64,000 nucleotides of DNA from Turneriella sp. (GTDB lineage: Bacteria; Spirochaetota; Leptospiria; Turneriellales; Turneriellaceae): positions 4,776,724 through 4,840,723 of the forward strand of contig CBDIID010000003.1 in assembly GCA_965279515.1 (NCBI GenBank), read 5' to 3'. Position numbers and translations under genes: made by a program. The notes under the pieces are model-generated. The model was not told where the DNA came from, made no database searches, and worked only from the letters and a program-made list of their open reading frames with translations. This document shows, in pieces, positions 352 to 39,389 of the stretch (position 1 is the first letter of the stretch; the number at the start of each line of letters is the position of its first letter).

Positions 352-2319
352 ATGTCGAAAACTCCGTTTTGGCTAACGATGCGCCATTTGCCCGATGTCT
401 TTGCCGCCTCGGCCCAAAAATTCCCCGGGCAGGGCTTTTATTCCAAAGATTCGCATAAATTCTTCAAGCCGACGCCTTTTTCTTCCTTATACAAGACGGC
501 TTCTGCATTTGCGATCCATCTCATTCAAGGCGGATTAAAACCGGGTGACCGGGTGGCGCTCTTCGGCGATAATTCGGCCGAGTGGCTGATCGCCGACATG
601 GCGATCCAGATGGCGGGGGCGATTGTCGTGCCGCGCGGCTCTGATTCGACGCCGCAGGAACTCGAATTTATCCTGAACCATGCCGAGGCCGGTCTCGTCT
701 TTATCGAACACTGGCGGCTCTATAAGAAGATTGCGCCAGCGCTGAAAAAGCGCGGCGCGAAAGTCTACATTCTCGACGCCGATTTTCCGCAGAAAACGGC
801 GGCCGACGACAAACTCGTCATTTTGCCGGAGCTTCTTAAAACCATCCCAGCGAGTACTGCGACCGACGACAAGCTGCTGGCAGAGCTGCGCGCGCAGATT
901 CTGCCGTCAGATCTCTTCACGATCATATATACCTCAGGTACAACCGGCGAACCCAAGGGTGTGATGCTCTCGCATGCCAACATGATGTACCAGCTGGAGA
1001 TCGCGCCGAAAAACCTCGGCATGTCGCCGGCCGACCGCATCCTGTCGATTCTGCCGGTCTGGCATATCTTCGAGCGCTTTATGCTCTACAGTGTGATCTA
1101 TGCGGGTTCGCATTATTTTTATTCGAACAAAAAAGACCTGATGGAAGATTTTGTCCGCGTGAAACCCACGCTGATGGCTTCGGCGCCGCGGCTGTGGGAG
1201 CAAATTTACCAGAAGCTGCGTGAACGCATCGACAAGACTGAGGCATTTAACCGCGAACTCTTCGATCTCTCTTATGGCATCAAACAGCGGCTGCACCGCG
1301 CTGAAAATATTGTCAACGGGCAGAGTGCCGAAACCAAAGAGCAGGGCTTCGTGGCGGGCATCGTTGAGTCTTTCACAGCGGGGCTGACAGCGCTCGGGCT
1401 TAAAGCCCCCGATGGTTATATGGATTCGATCTTTCTCGTGCGCGTGCGCGCGATGCTGGGCGGCGAGCTGCGCGGTACCATCTCGGGCGGCGGCGCGTTG
1501 CCGATCCATATCGACGAATTTTTTAACGCCATCGGCATCCCCGTGTACGAAGGTTATGGCATGACCGAATGTTCTCCGCTGATTTCGATGCGTGTGCCGG
1601 GGAAGGTCATTACCGGCACCGTCGGCTTCGTGCCTGAAAAGACAGTGGTCGAAATCCGCGGCGACGACGGTGTGCGCATTTTGCCTGCGGGTGAACCCGG
1701 TGTGATCTTCGTTAAGGGGCCCGGCGTGATGAAGGGCTATTATAAAAACGGTGATGCGACGCTCAAGGTTTTAAAAGATGGTTGGATGAACACCGGCGAT
1801 ATCGGTGTCTTCACGAAGAGCGGCCAGCTCGCGATCCGCGGTCGCGCGAAAGATACCATCGTGCTGCGCTCGGGCGAGAATCTAGAGCCCGTGCCGATTG
1901 AAACCCTGCTCGCGCAGCATCCGCTCATTGAGCAGGCCGTCGTCGTGGGGCAGGACCAGAAGAATCTAGGCGTACTCATCTGGCCGGAATATGACAAGCT
2001 CATCGATGCGGGTTATGATGTGAAGGAATTCGATTTAAAAAATGATCTCAACACCATGCCCGCACTCATTGCGATCTTCAAAGAAATCACCAGCGACCTC
2101 ATTAAAGAAGAAAACGGTTTCAAAGGCTTTGAGCGTATCAGCCACGTGCGTTTTCTGCCCGCGAAACTCATGGTCGGCGAAGAGCTCACGGCGCTGATGA
2201 AGATCAAACGCAATGTCGTGCATCAAAAATACGCGCCGCTGATCGAAGGGATGTTTAAGGAGTCGGCACGGACCTCCCTGTCCGCCGACTCCACGGTACC
2301 TCCTGTACCCATGGATTAA
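352..2319 (+). CDS. Long-chain fatty acid-CoA ligase (AMP-binding, FadD-like)
   Basis: YTSGTTGEPKG P-loop, YEGYGMTE, NTGDIG and GRAKDTIVLRSGENLEP motifs. Confidence 0.92.
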   Translation: MSKTPFWLTMRHLPDVFAASAQKFPGQGFYSKDSHKFFKPTPFSSLYKTASAFAIHLIQGGLKPGDRVALFGDNSAEWLIADMAIQMAGAIVVPRGSDSTPQELEFILNHAEAGLVFIEHWRLYKKIAPALKKRGAKVYILDADFPQKTAADDKLVILPELLKTIPASTATDDKLLAELRAQILPSDLFTIIYTSGTTGEPKGVMLSHANMMYQLEIAPKNLGMSPADRILSILPVWHIFERFMLYSVIYAGSHYFYSNKKDLMEDFVRVKPTLMASAPRLWEQIYQKLRERIDKTEAFNRELFDLSYGIKQRLHRAENIVNGQSAETKEQGFVAGIVESFTAGLTALGLKAPDGYMDSIFLVRVRAMLGGELRGTISGGGALPIHIDEFFNAIGIPVYEGYGMTECSPLISMRVPGKVITGTVGFVPEKTVVEIRGDDGVRILPAGEPGVIFVKGPGVMKGYYKNGDATLKVLKDGWMNTGDIGVFTKSGQLAIRGRAKDTIVLRSGENLEPVPIETLLAQHPLIEQAVVVGQDQKNLGVLIWPEYDKLIDAGYDVKEFDLKNDLNTMPALIAIFKEITSDLIKEENGFKGFERISHVRFLPAKLMVGEELTALMKIKRNVVHQKYAPLIEGMFKESARTSLSADSTVPPVPMD

Positions 2320-10734: not shown

Positions 10735-11349
10735 ATGCCCGATGTGCTGCATGAATCCAAACTGTATTTCAATTCCCGCCTGGCCGATTGTATGCCATCG
10801 CCGCATCTGCACAGCGAGCAGATCAAGGTTTATAACCAATACATCGCCGTCTTAAACAATTCAACGAGCCCCGAAGATTACCGGCAAAAACTCGGGCCGC
10901 TCGCGAGCATGTTTGCCGTCGCGCGCGCCGAGCAGGTGGATAAATATTTGAACCTGATGCGGCTCTACCAGAAGCTGGGAAATCCCGATAAGCTTAAGGC
11001 CGCGAAACTGCGTTATGACACCGCCGTCGCCGCACAGAACCATGGTGATCTCGTGAACCTCATGAGCACCGCGCAGACGAGCGCTGCTGATATCGAAGCC
11101 GGCGGGCACCAGAAACTGAGCCTGGCTGTGACGCTGATCCAATGCCTGCTTGTATACATGACTGAACCCGAAGCGCCTGACAAAAAGGGCTCGCTCGCAG
11201 GAATTCTGACAACTTACACCGATCTTCTCAAGCTCGACCCGACTTTTAAATGGGAGTCGTATAAAGAAACGCCGTATTCTTATATCGTATTTTTCGATGC
11301 GGAGCGCATGGCGCAGTTAGGCGAGGTCTTCATGGAGGCGACGGCATGA
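10735..11349 (+). CDS. Hypothetical protein
   Basis: Helical ORF with ATG at 10735 downstream of a TTGACG box; no motif recognised. Confidence 0.7.
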   Translation: MPDVLHESKLYFNSRLADCMPSPHLHSEQIKVYNQYIAVLNNSTSPEDYRQKLGPLASMFAVARAEQVDKYLNLMRLYQKLGNPDKLKAAKLRYDTAVAAQNHGDLVNLMSTAQTSAADIEAGGHQKLSLAVTLIQCLLVYMTEPEAPDKKGSLAGILTTYTDLLKLDPTFKWESYKETPYSYIVFFDAERMAQLGEVFMEATA

Positions 11350-11376
11350 GAGCACATCCTGTGCGCCGTCGCCCCG

Positions 11377-12453
11377 GTGCATCCTGCACCACGGGGCGTA
11401 AGGCCTAACATGGACGAAGGCAGCCGCGGCATGCTTGACAGCTACAAGTCGGGCATCGACAACTATGTAAAAAAACTCGGGGCGGATCACCCCAAGATCC
11501 AGGAGCTGTTGGCGTGCTTCAAGGACTTCGAAGCCCTGGGCGAAAAATCCGGCGATTTCGCGGGTTTCCACGCCGCCGCCAGCGCAGAGAATTTTTATGG
11601 CAAACTCACGAACCTGATGACCGAAGCGGCGATGGCGCAGCCTGCGGGCGGCGCTGCAGCCGAACCCACTGCCGCCCAGGCGGCGCAGGGGTACCATGCA
11701 GCCTACGCCGCTATTTTGCCCGAGGTCAAGGCCGGGCCGACCGGTAAGGTCTATGAGCGTATTTTTCAGATCGAGAAAGAGAGCGACAGCGCCTTACAGT
11801 TCATGCGCAGGCTCGCCGAGGAACATTTGCTCGTCGATATCTCGCGCATTCAGCTCATCGCCGAATTTAAGCGCGCCCATGAGCTCATGCGCGATGCTGC
11901 GAAAACTTCGGGCGGCGGTGGTGTTTCGCTGCCGGCGAGCGAAGCTTATTTCAACGCCACGCAAAAGTCGATGTCCGAGGCGAAGAGCATCACCCAGGTC
12001 GAATACCTCATGGTAGCGCGTGCCGAAATCGCCCAACTGGCGACGCTCTGGGATATGGGGTTTTGCAATGCGCTTTACCATCACCTAGCTTCTGAAGTCT
12101 CCGGGTATATGCTCGATACTTCAGAAGAGCAGCGCCAACGTGTGGAGAAAACATACCGCTATGTCGGCGCGTGGTGGGGTGTTGATTGGGACGAGCTCCA
12201 TAAAATCGAGCGCGTCTGGGATTTCTTCACCGTGACGCTGTGGCCGGCACTCAGAAAAGATTGGGAGCCCAAGGGTATTCCCAACGCCGAAGCGATGCGC
12301 GATTACCTGAAGACCTATCTCGACAAGGCGATGAAGGATAAACCCCCGCTTCAGCGCAATAGCCAGAACAAGTTTGCGCTATTTTGGGGCAACAATGTGC
12401 CTCTCGAAAAGGTCCATCAAACCCTGCTGCATCCGCCGGATTTACTTCGGTGA
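11377..12453 (+). CDS. Hypothetical protein
   Basis: 358-aa mostly helical ORF co-oriented with its neighbours; start uncertain (11377 or 11410). Confidence 0.72.
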   Translation: MHPAPRGVRPNMDEGSRGMLDSYKSGIDNYVKKLGADHPKIQELLACFKDFEALGEKSGDFAGFHAAASAENFYGKLTNLMTEAAMAQPAGGAAAEPTAAQAAQGYHAAYAAILPEVKAGPTGKVYERIFQIEKESDSALQFMRRLAEEHLLVDISRIQLIAEFKRAHELMRDAAKTSGGGGVSLPASEAYFNATQKSMSEAKSITQVEYLMVARAEIAQLATLWDMGFCNALYHHLASEVSGYMLDTSEEQRQRVEKTYRYVGAWWGVDWDELHKIERVWDFFTVTLWPALRKDWEPKGIPNAEAMRDYLKTYLDKAMKDKPPLQRNSQNKFALFWGNNVPLEKVHQTLLHPPDLLR

Positions 12454-32959: not shown

Positions 32960-33840
32960 GCACCCCAGATTATATCGTCGGCGACGATGCACAAAAAAAG
33001 CACCTGACAGAGATCCAAAGCAAAAAGGCGGCGGATGTCAGCGTAGACGACCTCAAATTCCTTTCTAACAGAATCCGGCAGAATGCCGTAGAAATGGTGT
33101 TCCGCGCGAATTCCGGGCATCCGGGCGGCCCCCTGGGTCTTGCTGACATCTATGCCTACCTCTATTTTAAAGTCATGAAACTCGAAGGCTCCGACCGCGA
33201 CCGCCTGCTGATCAGCAACGGCCACGTCTGCGCGGTGCGTTACAGCGCGATGGCGATCCGCGGCCAGTTGGGTGAGGGCGAGCTTGCCACATTCCGCCGT
33301 GTCGGTTCGCGCCTGCAGGGGCATCCCTCGACGAAATTTTTTCCCCTGGTCGAAAACTCGAGTGGCTCGCTGGGGCAGGGCCTGGCCAATGCCAGTGGCC
33401 TCGCCCTAGGCTTACGCTTTCAGAAAAACCCGGGCCGCGTGTTCCTGGGCATGTCTGACGGCGAATGCCAGGAAGGCATGACGTGGGAAGCAGCGATGGC
33501 CGCGGCGCATAACAAGCTCACGAACATCCATCCCTTTCTCGATTTCAACAATATCCAGATCGACGGCAAGGTCGAAAAGGTCATGGGTATCGAGCCGCTC
33601 GACAAAAAATTTGCGGGCTTTGGCTGGCTGGTCCGCGTCGCCGACGGCCACGATTTCGGCGCGATCGCCGAGGCCTTCGACTGGTCGCTAAAAAACGAAG
33701 GCGCGCCGAAAATTATACTCTTCAAAACCGTGCTCGGCAAGGGCGTTTCTTTTATGGAAAACAACCCTGACTGGCATGGCTCTCCGCCGAACCAAAAGGA
33801 CCGCGACGCGGCGATGGCAGAGCTTGCGAAAGCAGGCTGA
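32956..33840 (+). CDS. Transketolase N-terminal (TPP-binding) subunit
   Basis: SGHPGG, RDR...SNGH, LQGHP, SGSLGQG, SDGE..EG TPP motif, WHG. Confidence 0.93.
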   Translation: MSTPDYIVGDDAQKKHLTEIQSKKAADVSVDDLKFLSNRIRQNAVEMVFRANSGHPGGPLGLADIYAYLYFKVMKLEGSDRDRLLISNGHVCAVRYSAMAIRGQLGEGELATFRRVGSRLQGHPSTKFFPLVENSSGSLGQGLANASGLALGLRFQKNPGRVFLGMSDGECQEGMTWEAAMAAAHNKLTNIHPFLDFNNIQIDGKVEKVMGIEPLDKKFAGFGWLVRVADGHDFGAIAEAFDWSLKNEGAPKIILFKTVLGKGVSFMENNPDWHGSPPNQKDRDAAMAELAKAG

Positions 33841-33994
33841 GCCCTCCGAGGGCCACGAATTTTTCTCCGGACGCCGTTTGGCGATAATCAAGGCCGCTGC
33901 GCTTGTGGAAGCGATTCCACGGGGGCGGGAAACATTGCATCGCATTTTACCGGGGCTGCTGGCTAAGGAGTCAGGGGGCGGAGCGGTCGCCCGA

Positions 33995-34019
33995 GCAGCG
34001 CGTAAAATTTGCTGTCTGC
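33995..34019 (-). repeat. Degenerate attC-like junction end (junction 4)
   Basis: gcagcgcgtaaaatttgctgtctgc matches 34852-34876 at 21/25; the GTT core is mutated to GCT. Confidence 0.6.
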
Positions 34020-34090
34020 TACGGTCACGAAGGACCTTGAGAAAATTGAGAATATTGTCTTTCGCGCTTCAGTCGAGACGCTGCCCTTTT

Positions 34091-34636
34091 TCAGAGCTTG
34101 TGAACCATTACATGACGCCTTGTTCCTGCCATCCTCAGAAATTTAAACTTTGCCTTTGCAAAAGTTTGCTTAAAACCCATAAACCTATAACTGGGTGAAC
34201 TTGGTTCGACGGGATAAGCCTCTAAGAATTTTGCACCGTTGCTTTTGGCATATTTCTTAGCATGGTGTACCAGGATATCCACATATCCACGATCTCTATA
34301 CTCTTTCTTTATGAAGAAGCATGCAATGGACCAAGTAGGTGTCAAGCTCTCATCACCACCAAGGCGTTCATATGTATCCCTCGGTGCAATGGAGCACCAT
34401 GCGACTGGTTTAGCATCTACATAGCCAAGCAAGCCGATCGGTATCCCGGCCTGAACGCGTTTTCTTATGAATTTCTTGCGGTTCGGGGACGTATTTTTCT
34501 TGAGCTCCTCTTTGGTCATTCTCCAGGCCATGCACCAGCAATAGCTGGGTGCCCCTTTTGAACGAAACAGAGCATCGAAATCGGCCCACGTTGAGGAATC
34601 TACTGCTTTGACAGCGAGTGGCTGAACAACGGACAT
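34091..34636 (-). CDS. GNAT-family acetyltransferase (cassette-like)
   Basis: CWC..WR, GLLGY...PVAWCS, WSIACFF, R.RG, LEAYP, GF motifs; AT-richer than its flanks. Confidence 0.85.
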   Translation of the reverse strand: MSVVQPLAVKAVDSSTWADFDALFRSKGAPSYCWCMAWRMTKEELKKNTSPNRKKFIRKRVQAGIPIGLLGYVDAKPVAWCSIAPRDTYERLGGDESLTPTWSIACFFIKKEYRDRGYVDILVHHAKKYAKSNGAKFLEAYPVEPSSPSYRFMGFKQTFAKAKFKFLRMAGTRRHVMVHKL

Positions 34637-34765
34637 AATTTTTGCCTAAATTTCCAGAAACTTGCGGGAAATCTTTTTTCGGTCACTTAGTTTATCCAAA
34701 GAAGTGCCCTATTAGGATTAGTTCGGCGGCATGGCAGCCGCCGAGTAGCATTGCGCAACCATGAG

Positions 34766-34874
34766 CGCCAACGTGGATTTGACGCTGGTGTCATTTTTTC
34801 AATCTGGAAAGCCGATTTGCGTCAAGAAACGTGGTCGTAGCGAGTCGCGGCGCAGCGCTTAAAATTTGTTAGCT
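34766..34874 (-). mobile_element. attC-like recombination site, 109 bp (junction 3)
   Basis: Minus strand AGCTAAC (contains the upstream gene's TAA)...GTTGGCG; inner arms TTTAAGCGCTG/CAGCGTCAAA pair with one extrahelical base. Confidence 0.7.
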
Positions 34875-35528
34875 GCCGTATTTTTTTCGTTTTTTGAGAC
34901 TTTTGGGCATGCGTGCCCAAAGTACGGTTTGTCGAATCAGGCTTTCTGCGCTGCCTTTTGAATCAGCGGTGCTGCCAACAATTGAAGCTGGTAAGAATCT
35001 GAACCCTGGGCCTAAATCCGTGTGATTGGTAGTACTGATCTCCAAAGTGTTACCGCCTTCATCGGATATTAGCTCAATATTCGTGACTTGCTTTAGGGGT
35101 AATGTAGTTGATCGACCTTTCCTAACTACATAAAGATTGTCAGCATCTAAGAAGACATCTGGGATATCTTTATGCCTTCGAAGAAAAATTACGAAGGCAA
35201 AAATCGTGATAATGACAAAGGCGCCGGAGGCTAAATTAATCCCTTGGTGCCATACAATGTTCGCGCTTACCAAAACTAAAATTACCGTCATAATCGGGAT
35301 AAAGAAACTCCGCTGAAAAGCGCTCGCGCTCGACGAAACCCGAAGTCGGTTTTTTAGCGGCAAGTCCTGAGTAAGAGCCCACTTCTTGAGTGCCGTTAGG
35401 ACCATAGCGTGTCTCTTGGGCAATCGGCTGGGGTCGATTTGCTCGGCTAATTCTTGTAGCTCCGGTTGAGTTTTAGTCTCTAAATAAGCCCAATACTCGA
35501 TATCGGTATCAATTTTTCTTAAAGCCAT
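34869..35528 (-). CDS. Hypothetical 2-TM membrane protein (cassette-like)
   Basis: Two hydrophobic helices plus a PH-like beta region; ATG about 20 nt after a GTT core; stop lies in the R''-like box. Confidence 0.7.
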   Translation of the reverse strand: MALRKIDTDIEYWAYLETKTQPELQELAEQIDPSRLPKRHAMVLTALKKWALTQDLPLKNRLRVSSSASAFQRSFFIPIMTVILVLVSANIVWHQGINLASGAFVIITIFAFVIFLRRHKDIPDVFLDADNLYVVRKGRSTTLPLKQVTNIELISDEGGNTLEISTTNHTDLGPGFRFLPASIVGSTADSKGSAESLIRQTVLWARMPKSLKKRKKYGS

Positions 35529-35542
35529 ATTAAAAATATGTC

Positions 35543-35816
35543 AGCCAACGTGGAACTTATCTGGGGTTGAGTGACGCTTCGTTCAACTTTGTGTTCTGTA
35601 AAGCCATTTTGCGTCACTCAATCTGCCCGGAGCGCCTCTGAAGGCAGAGACTCGCCTACGGCTCGTCGCGCGGCAAAGCACAAAACAAGCGTCCCGCTTG
35701 TGCTTTGTCCGCGATCTTTGGCGCGTAGGGCCGGGCATGCGCGACCCGTCTTCGGGTCTCTGCCTTCAGAGGAGCCACGGCACCGCAGCGAGCGCAGCAG
35801 GTAAATTTTGTTAGGC
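35543..35816 (-). mobile_element. Long attC-like site with nested palindromes, 274 bp (junction 2)
   Basis: Minus strand GCCTAAC...GTTGGCT; inner arms TTACCTG/CAGATAA; internal perfect stems 35567-35577/35611-35621 and 35635-35651/35756-35772. Confidence 0.7.
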
Positions 35817-35840
35817 GCAGTTTTTCTTGGCCACCATGGC

Positions 35841-36026
35841 TCAATTTAAAGCAGATTTGGCTTTAACAGGGGTTGCATATTTAAATTTCAAGCCGTATTG
35901 TTTCTCGATGGTCTTCACAAATTCAGCATTATCTTGCTCAAGCTTAGCAAAATCATAATCAGCCAGTTTCGTGATTTGCCGGATTGTTTCGTGCTTAGTC
36001 TGTATAATCACATCATCTTTCTGCAT
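35841..36026 (-). CDS. Small protein, putative partner/antitoxin of the PIN protein
   Basis: GGAGG RBS inside the end of the PIN gene; MQKDDVII..KHE.I; 61 aa. Confidence 0.65.
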   Translation of the reverse strand: MQKDDVIIQTKHETIRQITKLADYDFAKLEQDNAEFVKTIEKQYGLKFKYATPVKAKSALN

Positions 36027-36028
36027 AT

Positions 36029-36496
36029 TCACCCTCCGTTCTCGAACAGCTCTAATGGGGATATTATACCCGGGGTTGTCAAACCCAATTTAGCGTTTAT
36101 CCGCGAGATATGTATGCGTTTGTTTACGTTCACCAAATGGCTGAAATTCCATGAGAGTAGGTAATCAAATTCGTAAAATGACGCATAAGCCAGATGGATT
36201 GCGTCGCCGCCTTCTTCCTGCGGCATCAAATAATTCTCTACGTAAATCTTGGCAATTTCTTCAATTCGGCTGTGGGGCGTTAATAGCTTTAAAGTTGCGG
36301 CTTCAGCTAGAATTCGATCTTTTCGAGGATAGTTTCCAACCCCCAACTCTCGGATAATTTCAGGAGAAATATAACAATCGAATTTTGGCCTTTGGTCAAG
36401 CCACCATAGCTTTGTCTGCTTGATGAGATAATTCAAATCAGGTCGTTCATCATGCAGATAGCTCAGAATCGTTGAGTCAAGATAAACTGTTTTCAT
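36029..36496 (-). CDS. PIN-domain (VapC-like) ribonuclease
   Basis: VYLDSTILS, S.EI..EL, DAIHLA.A, LLSWNFSH PIN acidic motif pattern. Confidence 0.88.
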   Translation of the reverse strand: MKTVYLDSTILSYLHDERPDLNYLIKQTKLWWLDQRPKFDCYISPEIIRELGVGNYPRKDRILAEAATLKLLTPHSRIEEIAKIYVENYLMPQEEGGDAIHLAYASFYEFDYLLSWNFSHLVNVNKRIHISRINAKLGLTTPGIISPLELFENGG

Positions 36497-36611
36497 TAGA
36501 ATTGGGAGCAGCCTTCCTACTTGCGAAAAATATCCATGAAACAGGCGGCCAAGAAAAATTGCGCCTAACACCTATTACCTGAAAAACTGTGCCGTCGTTC
36601 CCCGACACCTT

Positions 36612-36780
36612 ACTAAATCGCAAAGATGCCATCCATGGCAGCGATTTAGTCCGTAGCCTCATGCTACCTGGAAACCACAAGGACGACCTCCTGTCGGTGG
36701 TTTCTCAGTGACCTCCTGTCACCTGACAAATCCGCAAAGATGGCCTCCTGCCAGCGGATTTGTGCGTAACATCCTGTTAC
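36612..36780 (-). repeat. Three tandem double-hairpin units with GGA loops
   Basis: Units 36612-36667, 36671-36722 and 36726-36780, each a bulged long hairpin plus a 5-bp hairpin. Confidence 0.85.
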
Positions 36781-37697
36781 CGCACAATAATCCGAAAAAT
36801 AAATGGCACGATTAGCATGCCGTTCTCTAATAGCTCTTTCGGCGGTGGGCCGAAGTCGTGTGCCGCGTAGAGCGCCTCGATGCAAGAGCGGTCCAGGGAT
36901 TGAAATCCTAATGAGGAAACGAGCTTCGCGTCGCGCACTACACCCTGGTCATCGAGCAGAAACTGGATGTAGATGTCCTGGCTCGGGAATGTAGCGAAGC
37001 GGGTATAACCAGACGCATGCCCCATGCGGTGGTAAGAATCGCCGAAAGTCGGGTAGGGGTCGCCGCCCGGCGGCGCCCAGACATTCTGGATCTTATTCAC
37101 CATCGAGCGGAAATAACTGTAATGCGCATAACGCGCCGTCGGTATCGCAGGCCGGCCGGCATAGTCCCACGACAGGGCGAAATCGTTCCGCCAGCGGTAA
37201 TACGCCGGTATGCGCATACGCTCTGTCGGAGTCTGTGGTTCGGCCTGCTGTTTTTCCGCGATGGTAATCCGCGTTCGGCCTTCTTTGGATGTCAGAATCT
37301 TTGCGTATTTTTTCGCCGAGACGATGCGCGCCTGCACGCTTTGTTTTTGCCCCGGCGAGAGGACATAGTCATTGGAGATCGACTCAAAACCCTTTTCTTT
37401 CGTGAGGTCGCCGCGTGCTTCAGAGTCTTTGTCAGACAGGAATTTCACTGTAGAGCGTTTCTTCTTTTTCTCAATGTAGGTGTTTTCGAGCAGCGCCCGG
37501 ATAATCTGGTCGCCGCTGACCTGGCTCTTTTCAGATTCGCCGAAAATGAGGTTCCTGAGGTCGAGCTCGAGGTAGAGGCTCAGCAGTATGCAGAGCGAGA
37601 GCAGCGCGGAGAAAAAACGCGCAAATGCGGCGTCAGAAATCCGCTTCGACGGGGTCGAATTTACCGCGTTTTCGGATGATGCTTTCGCGAAGGTCAT
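36777..37697 (-). CDS. TonB/TolA C-terminal domain membrane protein
   Basis: N-terminal TM; YF..M..KI...W, F.LD..G.V....L.SS.G...LD..C..AL....FGPPP. Confidence 0.75.
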   Translation of the reverse strand: MTFAKASSENAVNSTPSKRISDAAFARFFSALLSLCILLSLYLELDLRNLIFGESEKSQVSGDQIIRALLENTYIEKKKKRSTVKFLSDKDSEARGDLTKEKGFESISNDYVLSPGQKQSVQARIVSAKKYAKILTSKEGRTRITIAEKQQAEPQTPTERMRIPAYYRWRNDFALSWDYAGRPAIPTARYAHYSYFRSMVNKIQNVWAPPGGDPYPTFGDSYHRMGHASGYTRFATFPSQDIYIQFLLDDQGVVRDAKLVSSLGFQSLDRSCIEALYAAHDFGPPPKELLENGMLIVPFIFRIIVR

Positions 37698-38445
37698 TTA
37701 TAGCCTTATCAACGCCTGTGCCAGCCCGCTTCAGGTGCAGGTCGACGAGGGTGAGGGCTGTCGTATAGTCATTTACGGCCGCCGTTACCCTTGCACAATT
37801 TAATAAATATCGCGGGAGGCGGCTTTTTTGCCAGTCAACCTTGGTACAGAGCTTGGCCGCCGACTTGCCGTCCTTAAGTTCCAGGGCATAGAGCCTCAGC
37901 AGAAAATATTCGGTCTCTTCGTCGCCGGCATGCGTTTCGAGGTAAGCCGTCACAACTTCGCGTGCACGGTCTTTTTCCTTGAGTTGCAGGTAGATCTGCG
38001 CCATACGCCGCAGCGTCACGCCGTCGACGGTGCGCATCGCGCCGGAAATTTTGGACAGGTTTTGCAGCGTCTCGTCCCGGTCTTTGCGTTTGGAGCTGAT
38101 TTCGGCAATACGCACAAGCGCGCGCACGCGGTATTTTTCCTTGAGGTCACCCTGTTGTACCGCCTGTTTCAGCATGGTGAGCGCGATGTCTTCGGTGATC
38201 TGTTCTTCAGAGAGCAGCATGCCTTTGCCGTAAAGCGCAAGGGCTTCCTGCGCATTGCTCCTCAGCGCGCGGTCGAAGAGTTCCAGTGCAGAGGTCTGTT
38301 TGCCCTGTTCGAGGCGGAGCAGGCCCTCTTCGGAGAGGGCGCGCGCGCGGCCGCAGCCGCTGCACACGATTAAACAGAGGGCGAGGACGGGCGCCAGGGC
38401 GCCAAGGCCAGTTTTTCTTTTTCCAATGCCGGGATCGTCGATCAC
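37633..38445 (-). CDS. TPR-repeat putative lipoprotein
   Basis: Hydrophobic signal ending in SGC; A..ALYGKG TPR helices. Confidence 0.7.
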   Translation of the reverse strand: MIDDPGIGKRKTGLGALAPVLALCLIVCSGCGRARALSEEGLLRLEQGKQTSALELFDRALRSNAQEALALYGKGMLLSEEQITEDIALTMLKQAVQQGDLKEKYRVRALVRIAEISSKRKDRDETLQNLSKISGAMRTVDGVTLRRMAQIYLQLKEKDRAREVVTAYLETHAGDEETEYFLLRLYALELKDGKSAAKLCTKVDWQKSRLPRYLLNCARVTAAVNDYTTALTLVDLHLKRAGTGVDKAINDLRESIIRKRGKFDPVEADF

Positions 38446-39389
38446 TTCTTAGGCATCAGGTTGGGCATGCCGGCCTTGTCGACCAGATCTTCAATACGCG
38501 GGAAGAGAGCGTCCACCTTAGACTTTGTCACCGTCAATGGCTGGGCTGTATCAGTGGATTTTACGATGAATTCCTGTTCTTTGGTCGGGCCGAAAAATTC
38601 GACTTCTTTGACTATTCCCGCTGTGAGCGAAATTTTGATCTTTCCGTAAGAGGCAGGCAGCGTGGCTTCCTTGAAGAATTTTGCACCGCTCAGATCAGAA
38701 ATATCAGCCAGGTAAGTGGTGATCCGTGCCTTATCGGTTGCGCGTGCGGGATCCAGCGTCAGCACGCCTTTCTCGTCTGCTTTAAGGGTAAATTTTTCCT
38801 TACCCTCAACCTGGATTTCCTTGATGTTTTCCTTGGCAATGCGCAATATCGCGTGATCGCGGTAGAGATCGAATTCCTGGTTCCAGTCACCCTTGAGAAA
38901 ACCCTTCACGGCAAAAACCGCGCTTTCGTCGGCCAGGCGTATGAAGCTGGCATTGCCTGATCCGGAGAACTTACCCAAAGAAGCTTGCGCTATCTTCTCG
39001 CCGTTTTCCCCTTCGAGCACGATCTGGAAATCCTGGTCGCGCACCTCATATTCGCCCTGCTTTTCCTTATTGGAAGAAACTTCCTGGTAGCGGCGCGCCT
39101 CGAAGATGTTCTTGAGTCCGGTTTCGACTTTACCGGTGTCGGCGCGTTGCACTCCCGATGTACCGGGCTGCTCGAGCGACCAGCCTTCGGTTGTGCGTGT
39201 GAAAATGCGCTTGTTTGCGCCGTCAGTTGTCGTGACCTTCTTTACACGTTCGCTGCGGCCCTTGAGCAGCGGTTTGGATTTTTCATAGCTGCTCTCAAAG
39301 AGCAGAAAGGGATCGTTGACCAGAAAACCCAGGATGAAGGTAACGCCGACGATGGCGGCAAGTATTGTGTTTCGTTTCTCTCTCGGCAT
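38442..39389 (-). CDS. DUF4340-domain protein (Gld-type ABC accessory)
   Basis: N-terminal TM; W....AD..V...L, LGK..YVR-like and RD motifs; position after the GldG-like gene. Confidence 0.75.
   Translation of the reverse strand: MPREKRNTILAAIVGVTFILGFLVNDPFLLFESSYEKSKPLLKGRSERVKKVTTTDGANKRIFTRTTEGWSLEQPGTSGVQRADTGKVETGLKNIFEARRYQEVSSNKEKQGEYEVRDQDFQIVLEGENGEKIAQASLGKFSGSGNASFIRLADESAVFAVKGFLKGDWNQEFDLYRDHAILRIAKENIKEIQVEGKEKFTLKADEKGVLTLDPARATDKARITTYLADISDLSGAKFFKEATLPASYGKIKISLTAGIVKEVEFFGPTKEQEFIVKSTDTAQPLTVTKSKVDALFPRIEDLVDKAGMPNLMPKK

Follow-up and report, generated by a model that had tools for sequence, protein, structure and literature searches.

The closest described relatives of the locus analysed here are the TwoAYGGAY motif, the REP/BIME repeats and the Rickettsia palindromic elements. 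The main text of Li et al. (bioRxiv 10.64898/2026.09.22.753630) presents TwoAYGGAY as a pair of hairpins that share a stem and whose copy number varies strongly, in Pseudomonadota with an extension, 5' GMTBT repeats and divergent doublets. It sets aside 1,693 of 16,086 matches that lie in coding sequence, leaves the link between mobility and regulation unresolved and does not mention target sites, integrons or spirochetes; the supplements may list spirochete matches. Binding of CsrA to TwoAYGGAY was proposed by Gardner and Eldai, who report a poorly conserved outer stem (PMC4333381). CsrA recognises the consensus CANGGANG, paired sites about 20 nt apart suit its dimer, and sRNAs of the CsrB type anti-correlate with FliW (PMC4894983). 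Models of excision, insertion and rolling-circle-like amplification have been put forward for BIMEs (PMC3333891). Non-GTAG inverted repeats around transposases have been described (Di Nocera 2013, PMC3733652; Quentin 2018, PMC6006769), and the accessible portions of these two papers do not name the loop described below for such enzymes. A literature search found no description of the element reported here.

The stretch of DNA analysed, called the window, is 64 kb long and lies on the 4.84-Mb contig C3 (CBDIID010000003.1) of the Turneriella genome G000. It carries an array of three double-hairpin units with a start-to-start spacing of 55-58 (Table 1). Their arms, bulges and loops had been listed in an earlier reading of the letters without database searches (the sequence-only reading) and were all found in place when the sequence was re-read, as was GGA in five of the six minus-strand loops, the sixth being ATGAG. 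Folding of the minus strand gives the six predicted hairpins as RNA (z = -4.35, centroid structure) and a stable fold as DNA (z = -8.95), with none of 200 shuffled sequences as stable in either case. The array occupies the 3' end of the TonB-domain gene, the final gene of an operon with gldA/F/G-like ABC, DUF4340 and TPR genes. The last short hairpin includes the tonB stop codon (36777-36779), which places part of the array in coding sequence. The terminator-like hairpin that follows the array is a weak call, with three sites found against 1.4 +/- 1.1 in shuffles. A consensus scan detects no sigma-70-like promoter on the minus strand at the array. An Rfam search of window positions 33000-39000 returns one chance match and none to the Csr/Rsm clan. 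The imperfect repeat next to unit 3 reads as a duplicated target, and the same pattern is seen at the orthologous locus in two relatives (L013 and L018). Elsewhere in the window, the copy at 2256..2311 keeps the frame of a 647-codon ORF, close to its 3' end.

Table 1. Features of the window, in window positions; R1 is the covariance model of the repeat unit.
Feature	Position	Strand	Description
Single unbulged hairpin, same loop type (variant loop)	34723..34744	-	Start of third cassette
attC-like site ending first cassette	35546..35816	-	Neighbour
attI-like site opening small integron-type cassette array	36563..36581	-	CAG.TAATAG..|GTT motif; neighbour outside the element
Terminator-like hairpin with T-rich tail	36589..36608	-	Directly after the array
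Unit 1	36612..36667	-	Long bulged hairpin 36612-36650, short hairpin 36653-36667; R1 38.4 bits
Unit 2	36671..36722	-	Long bulged hairpin 36671-36704, short hairpin 36708-36722; R1 43.4 bits
Unit 3	36726..36783	-	Long bulged hairpin 36726-36763, short hairpin 36766-36780; R1 33.7 bits
Imperfect direct repeat of unit-3 long arm (36726-36735)	36784..36794	+	Equals tonB coding 3' end
TonB C-terminal-domain protein gene	36777..37697	-	TIGR01352 27.2 bits, cut-off 27.1
Another unit copy	2256..2311	-	R1 match C3:4778979-4779034; GGA strand antisense
Another unit copy	11334..11392	-	Operon junction, overlaps stop codon; GGA strand antisense

The three units form a tandem head-to-tail array of a dispersed repeat rather than a single-locus sRNA. 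The loop core C[AC]TCC(N)TG sits within a stem of at least six pairs at 66 of its 2329 sites in G000, against 0-12 for nine altered cores. The genome search for copies called for by the sequence-only reading proved productive: a strict descriptor of the whole unit finds 57 copies, against none for each of five permuted loops, and the covariance model R1, built from 18 strict copies, gives 92 matches at E<=0.05 among 150 candidates scored. The union of both sets holds 96 copies, 86 of which were parsed and are the basis of the counts below. Five tandem arrays, including that of the window, are present in G000. All 13 other genomes of the genus have R1 matches, 27-88 each, which are lower bounds with 133 candidates scored per genome. 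Beyond the genus, in a survey of 41 genomes, R1 gives 3-4 weak matches in two of six family members, 1-2 in four of 14 order members and none in seven other members of the class. The exact double-hairpin pattern is found in 13 stretches of the genome collection, all titled Turneriella, Leptospiraceae or Spirochaetes, and the strict pattern has no match in viral contigs.

In its 54-58 bp the element holds two hairpins, first a short one and then a long one interrupted by a 5-nt bulge. Each ends in a C-A(N)GGA(T/G)-G loop, and the spacing from loop to loop is about 26 nt (25-27 in 83 of 86 copies). GGA is present in 150 of 172 loops, exactly AYGGAY in 45, and 65 loops have five bases. The bulge, held by the sequence-only reading to be conserved, is there as a 5-mer but is only purine-rich, with AAAGA in 14 of 86 copies. 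Stems differ strongly between copies (mean identity 0.40, median to the nearest neighbour 0.71), while 95% of cells are paired and 15 of 17 pairs show double changes in 82 distinct model-aligned copies; covariation among them is 0.80 against 0.18 when shuffled and at most 0.12 when slid, in an alignment fitted to the model. The pairing kept despite stem change, as noted from the window units, indeed indicates constraint on structure but does not necessarily imply an RNA function for the host. Near-identical dispersed copies are scarce, with a neighbour at >=0.9 stem identity for four of 86, which would be unlike a recently active family. Stem mismatches on the GGA strand are G.A 27 times against 2 and G.T 22 times against 8, identifying the GGA strand as the folding strand; mutational bias could contribute to this excess. 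Flank complementarity of 68 single units gives no sign of a basal stem (3.67 against 3.51 +/- 0.12, 100 of 1000 shuffles being as high), and no position upstream of the arm exceeds 57% conservation in the 86 copies. A conserved foot was not found on either side of these copies (GTAG in 3 and 2, GGAG in 3 and 7), and a CGTC tag is seen on the 5' side of 12.

The element is mobile, as evidenced by its many dispersed copies, by filled and empty orthologous sites, by end repeats and by changes in copy number. At the tonB end, six of nine relatives have no unit and three have units of other sequence and number. A related-strain contig (run X2) joins 36725 to 36784 and lacks exactly the 58 bases of unit 3, in a joint that rests on one contig of depth 3.8 and 85% likeness and in which four bases fit both sides. 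Of 13 cobB loci 12 could be parsed, and site 1 is filled in three, shortened in three and empty in six, site 2 filled in four and empty in eight. The ispA unit is found in G000 only, nine other loci being empty and two having a few extra residues (12 of 13 parsed), whereas thiC has one filled, one degraded and eight loci without unit (10 of 12 parsed). Across five genomes the adenylate cyclase gene carries 0, 0, 1, ~2.5 and ~2.5 units. Among 27 loci derived from the 30 best matches in genome G001, six are clean inserts of 54/57 bp absent in G000 and eight are shared with it; the rest are absent with rough alignment, unclear or unplaced. Many insertions have a direct repeat of 5-14 bp at their ends, one copy overlapping the start of the long arm and the other the 3' arm of the short hairpin. 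Among 68 single units, 15 reach an end-repeat score of at least 7, compared with 2% of cross pairs; none of 2000 permutations reaches the observed mean. End repeats are lacking at some clean inserts (none in L116, only 2 nt in L130). At thiC, 8 of 10 positions of the internal linker are those of the duplicated target read in reverse complement. A uniform X-X'-X triplication of the target was considered and rejected, as it fits some sites only.

Fourteen comparisons of orthologous copies give 134 pairs unchanged, 45 changed on both sides and still pairing, 16 changed on one side and one unpaired on both. When two doubtful pairings (L125, L128) are removed, 124 pairs are unchanged, 30 compensated and 14 one-sided. 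Degraded copies were left out and one further pair was unparsed, so that these counts lean towards pairing. The compensated changes point either to in situ selection for the fold or to copying between the arms. Arm sequences are shared between unrelated loci and with other genomes, showing that the arms are not purely made from the target.

By the gene calls made in this analysis, which are not curated, 41 of the 86 copies fall within ORFs, while co-directional gene pairs flank 30, divergent pairs 10 and convergent pairs 5; some of the inside calls near N-termini may reflect mis-set starts. There is no strand bias in co-directional gaps, where 14 copies have the GGA strand in sense and 16 in antisense orientation, and the orientation relative to the replichore is 46 against 40. 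Of the 41 copies within ORFs, 30 are oriented with the GGA strand as sense (p = 0.004). Stop codons were rejected as the cause, the open frames being 206 and 201 for the two strands, and the sense excess in spite of equal frames hints at a filter at the RNA or protein level. Orthologs confirm in-frame residence in cobB, thiC, ispA and the adenylate cyclase gene, with about 18-19 residues added per copy. Inspection by eye of the ORFs flanking 45 units called outside genes revealed no evident frameshifting insertion. In the RNase P protein gene (L034:496-612), two and a half units spaced at 60 bp continue the reading frame and lengthen the C-terminus of the protein.

The array adjoins a small integron-type cassette array, and single unbulged hairpins with the same loop type are found within such cassettes. 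At least 116 uniform attC-like sites of ~208 bp occur in three regions of G000 (C3:93000-170700, C3:3734000-3805400 and window 33900-36581). The attI-like motif of Table 1 heads all three arrays, with TTGACA ~35 bases upstream in the two large ones, and no integrase gene lies beside any of the three heads. The single hairpins stand at the cassette start in 28 of 30 cassettes with inverted genes and in 3 of 52 with direct genes (p = 3e-16), counts that include some duplicate cassettes. Hairpins at both ends are seen in 16 of the 30, and the genes have the GGA strand as their sense strand. This association is accounted for by neither model of the element. Many inverted-gene cassettes encode toxin-antitoxin-like pairs, and gene-less cassettes of ~188 bp are repeated in both large arrays (G000:C3:3735721-3782063 and 111117-155724). 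The first cassette of the window (35841-36571, minus strand) has two small low-GC ORFs without Pfam or NCBIfam match, and the complementarity between its two ends extends ~23 bases past the core sites.

The integron integrase model TIGR02249 finds nothing over its cut-off in G000. It finds nothing at E<=1e-30 in the 14 genus genomes or in the controls, which makes the genus-wide blank uninformative. A 366-residue tyrosine recombinase, remote from the arrays (L006:1219-2319, minus strand; G000:C3:2926093-2927193), scores 161 with the integron-integrase model against a cut-off of 265 and apparently has no IntI insertion. Its relatives are found in 11 of 13 genus genomes, with an attC next to the gene in L311 and an attI-like site in L319, and it is a candidate for the cassette integrase. 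The two other contigs of G000 have repeated structures: C2 consists of three repeats of a 6,626-bp mobilisable plasmid, which carries a restriction-modification pair and one hairpin with the loop type of the element, and C1, which carries parAB, repeats with a period of 23,474 bp.

A possible enzymatic partner is suggested by another phylum. An Acidobacteriota RAYT gene (L328; NF047646 96.6 bits, cut-off 80) is flanked on both sides by inverted double hairpins with the loop of the element, in a genome where csrA was not found. Among the best 80 of its 540 relatives, which are close kin mostly from Pyrinomonadaceae/Blastocatellia, 71 have both flanks available: 21 carry hairpins on both sides, nine on one side and 41 on neither, while three permuted loops give 0 of 80. 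The CA(N)GGA(T/G)G loop is thus common to the element and to REP-like hairpins at 30 of 71 RAYT loci, which points to mobilisation as single-stranded DNA. The hairpins of this clade (L328:1490-2270, L476-L555) are GGAG-footed, have CATCC(N)TG loops and are single or double.

Within the host lineage, the search for a RAYT gene that the sequence-only reading had suggested found no cognate in G000, where neither the RAYT query nor NF047646 gives a match; the query gives one weak match in the 13 other genus genomes. The RAYT model detects 20 loci in 34 genomes of the order, none flanked by the element, one hairpin lying ~450 bases off (L564). None of 23 Y1 loci of the genus is flanked by the element either, with one weak R1 match. 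The only Y1 gene of G000, which is IS200-like, was rejected as cognate as it carries its own, different hairpins. This gene (L001:1458-1900, G000:C3:2616100-2617250) is flanked by hairpins with a AATTAATT loop, present in six copies in G000, one of them inside the neighbouring ATPase ORF, and found also in L276 and L285; they form a second, small REP-like family. The element would then be an orphan without cognate enzyme, as the CGTC REPs are.

We favour, as the probable full explanation, an array of a non-autonomous mobile element moved through folded single-stranded DNA by an HUH nuclease acting in trans. That the units belong to a dispersed mobile repeat is highly probable. The HUH route, which draws on the loop common to another phylum and on the amplification models for BIMEs, is about evenly balanced, and a circular monomer is doubtful though conceivable. 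The folded strand would be cut and rejoined by a Y1/RAYT-type nuclease that reads the loop and the shape, not the stem sequence. Since the linker that separates the two hairpins pairs with the end repeat, an end-joined monomer could close as a small dumbbell circle. The circle would insert where the target offers 5-14 nt of likeness, and tandem amplification could follow along the lines of the BIME models. If one arm is copied onto the other after insertion, or if the fold is under selection, pairing would be restored with stems that differ in every copy, and transcripts of the GGA strand may bind CsrA as a side effect. IS200/IS605 elements are not known to duplicate their target on insertion, and template switching can turn quasi-palindromes into perfect ones.

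Other explanations put CsrA first. The sequence-only reading saw in the window a sponge-like RNA derived from a 3' UTR, or a CsrA-responsive leader, specific to the stretch that separates the tonB operon from the cassette array. This agrees with the six hairpins, GGA being present in five of them, that the sense strand of the operon carries ahead of a terminator-like site, and with related units at the same gene end in three of nine relatives. The proposed search recovered csrA and fliW as adjacent genes in G000. The loops of array and element fit the CsrA consensus (PMC4894983), and CsrA binding to sense-strand copies, those of the window included, is a plausible, putative property. The sponge reading is weakened by fliW adjoining csrA and by the missing Csr/Rsm match. 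A dedicated sponge at the tonB locus does not fit with a locus empty in six of nine relatives, with a unit number that differs in a related strain, with one of five tandem arrays in a family of about 90 copies or with a minus strand without sigma-70-like promoter, and we consider it very unlikely. The many copies in both orientations, which the sequence-only reading had itself named as speaking for a REP family, make its alternative of a REP-like element the better reading. Mobility is nevertheless compatible with a domesticated module that spreads and whose copies are kept since two GGA loops bind one CsrA dimer, giving control of mRNAs or a dispersed CsrA sink; the difference lies in what maintains the fold. 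The prevalence of GGA in loops fitting the consensus (PMC4894983), the presence of csrA, the compensated changes in orthologous copies, the sense excess inside ORFs, the sense-strand hairpins after the stop of inverted cassette genes and the earlier proposal for TwoAYGGAY (PMC4333381) all agree with this. More than half of the co-directional intergenic copies are antisense, however, copies are decayed or absent at orthologous sites, the pairing counts include only copies still folding, and the same loop flanks RAYT genes. Copies are also multiple where csrA was not found: csrA is present in two of five other genomes chosen for bearing the double hairpin, and the three without detected csrA (MAGs, completeness not given) have 5, 8 and 12 double-hairpin matches against 0 for the reversed pattern. 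Domestication by CsrA is possible but rather unlikely as the reason for the fold.

Two further explanations concern the way in which copies are made. In one, the donor would give only loops and bulge, the arms being fresh reverse copies of the target produced by template switching or snap-back, which would account for the different stems of every copy. The long arm at ispA equals eight bases of ancestral coding sequence, the thiC linker resembles the reverse complement of its duplicated target, the unit 3 arm is like the tonB gene end, and likeness of arm A to the right flank and of the short arm to the left flank exceeds that in 1000 of 1000 shuffles. Yet recurrence of arms at unrelated loci and in other genomes implies that they are at least partly inherited from the donor, the overlap of arm and repeat varies from 1 to 10 bases, and microhomology-guided insertion yields the same pattern, so that synthesis templated by the target seems improbable. 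The other explanation, a small structured or circular RNA that is reverse-transcribed and inserted, takes support from mismatches favouring G.U/G.A on the GGA strand, the sense excess in ORFs and the dumbbell geometry. The mismatches fit single-stranded DNA or mutational bias as well, intergenic copies have no sense bias, reverse transcriptases are found in only 6 of 14 genus genomes and are of mixed types, and the single one of G000 is defence-like; such a retro-element is very unlikely. The G000 enzyme (L101:775-2310, minus strand) has 511 residues, scores below all named cut-offs (best Drt4, 57 bits) and lies within a low-GC defence-like island.

The preferred explanation by single-stranded DNA mobilisation can be extended across phyla in a reading that is tentative and rather unlikely as a whole. 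The GGA double hairpin would be a recognition module of HUH-mobilised DNA, with its minimal form in this genus: a single-stranded DNA dumbbell of 54-58 nt in which only two loops and the bulge are fixed and the stems are partly rewritten from the target. It would put paired CsrA-type sites and peptides of 18-19 residues into core enzymes, and the same hairpin, which marks inverted cassettes, may help make them. If so, the TwoAYGGAY 'RNAs' would be mobile single-stranded DNA ends first and CsrA ligands second. The element and the RAYT clade provide a concrete substrate and enzyme for testing, and the element offers a way to separate recognition of single-stranded DNA from CsrA binding. Through it, core proteins of a free-living bacterium also gain new peptide segments. 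Perfect covariation is commonly taken to prove that an RNA is functional, yet here a mobile repeat may be its origin.

The element resembles the CsrB/CsrC/RsmX/Y/Z RNAs in its several GGA-loop hairpins fitting CANGGANG and in paired sites suited to a CsrA dimer. It differs from these sRNAs by being dispersed in both orientations, at unconserved positions, without Rfam match and in a host that has FliW; in place of a single conserved locus with promoter, six of nine orthologous loci are empty and no promoter-like site is seen. With TwoAYGGAY (RF01731; Weinberg 2010, PMC2864571) it shares two sequential hairpins, short then long, with C-G-closed GGA loops, a variable and multiple copy number and a loop spacing of 26-27 nt, as in gammaproteobacterial loci of which two pass the Rfam cut-off. 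Correspondence to a double hairpin with AYGGAY loops is loose. The element has 54-58 bp against about 170, no basal stem enclosing both hairpins, A(N)GGA(U/G) loops, a 5-nt bulge and head-to-tail arrays instead of divergent doublets. Its host is a spirochete, about half of its copies are in ORFs, and filled and empty sites and end repeats are shown here. RF01731 reaches at best 24.4 bits in G000 against a cut-off of 43 (one match, 150 candidates scored) and has no match in window positions 33000-39000 or in four loci of the genus. A looser double-hairpin pattern is found in at least 123 stretches, and most of the 80 listed keep the same loop spacing. Hosts among the matches listed are Xanthomonadaceae, Pseudomonas, Acinetobacter, Thalassolituus, clostridia, Caldithrix and Acidobacteriota, and the hairpins stand there at the tip of larger palindromes. 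Of 16 such loci compared with RF01731, two pass the cut-off and five more match below it.

REP/BIME repeats with RAYT (TnpA-REP) and TIRtrons (Di Nocera 2013, PMC3733652; Ton-Hoang 2012, PMC3333891) are likewise small multi-copy non-coding hairpin repeats, and the tandem arrays of strain-variable number are common to both, as is the loop with hairpins around the L328 RAYT clade. The element has no GTAG-type tag, no flanked transposase gene in G000 and no GGAG foot as found in that clade, and it has end repeats and half of its copies inside genes. BIME copies at one locus are well conserved (PMC3333891), whereas the tandem copies of the element differ widely. Insertion in frame in conserved genes, with ~18-19 residues added, recalls the Rickettsia palindromic elements and the intragenic CGTC/GTAG REPs, and for CGTC REPs, too, no dedicated transposase is known (PMC3733652). 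The element departs from them by lacking the CGTC tag, by stems not conserved in sequence, by its double hairpin with GGA loops and by its free-living host. It works like a non-autonomous element of REP/BIME type with RPE-like intragenic copies and a TwoAYGGAY core, while falling outside each class by the defining tests. TwoAYGGAY, REP/BIME and RPE were known before; new here is a minimal form of 54-58 bp, a stripped-down relative of TwoAYGGAY, for which filled and empty sites, end repeats and in-frame insertions give direct evidence of mobility and whose loop also flanks a RAYT clade.
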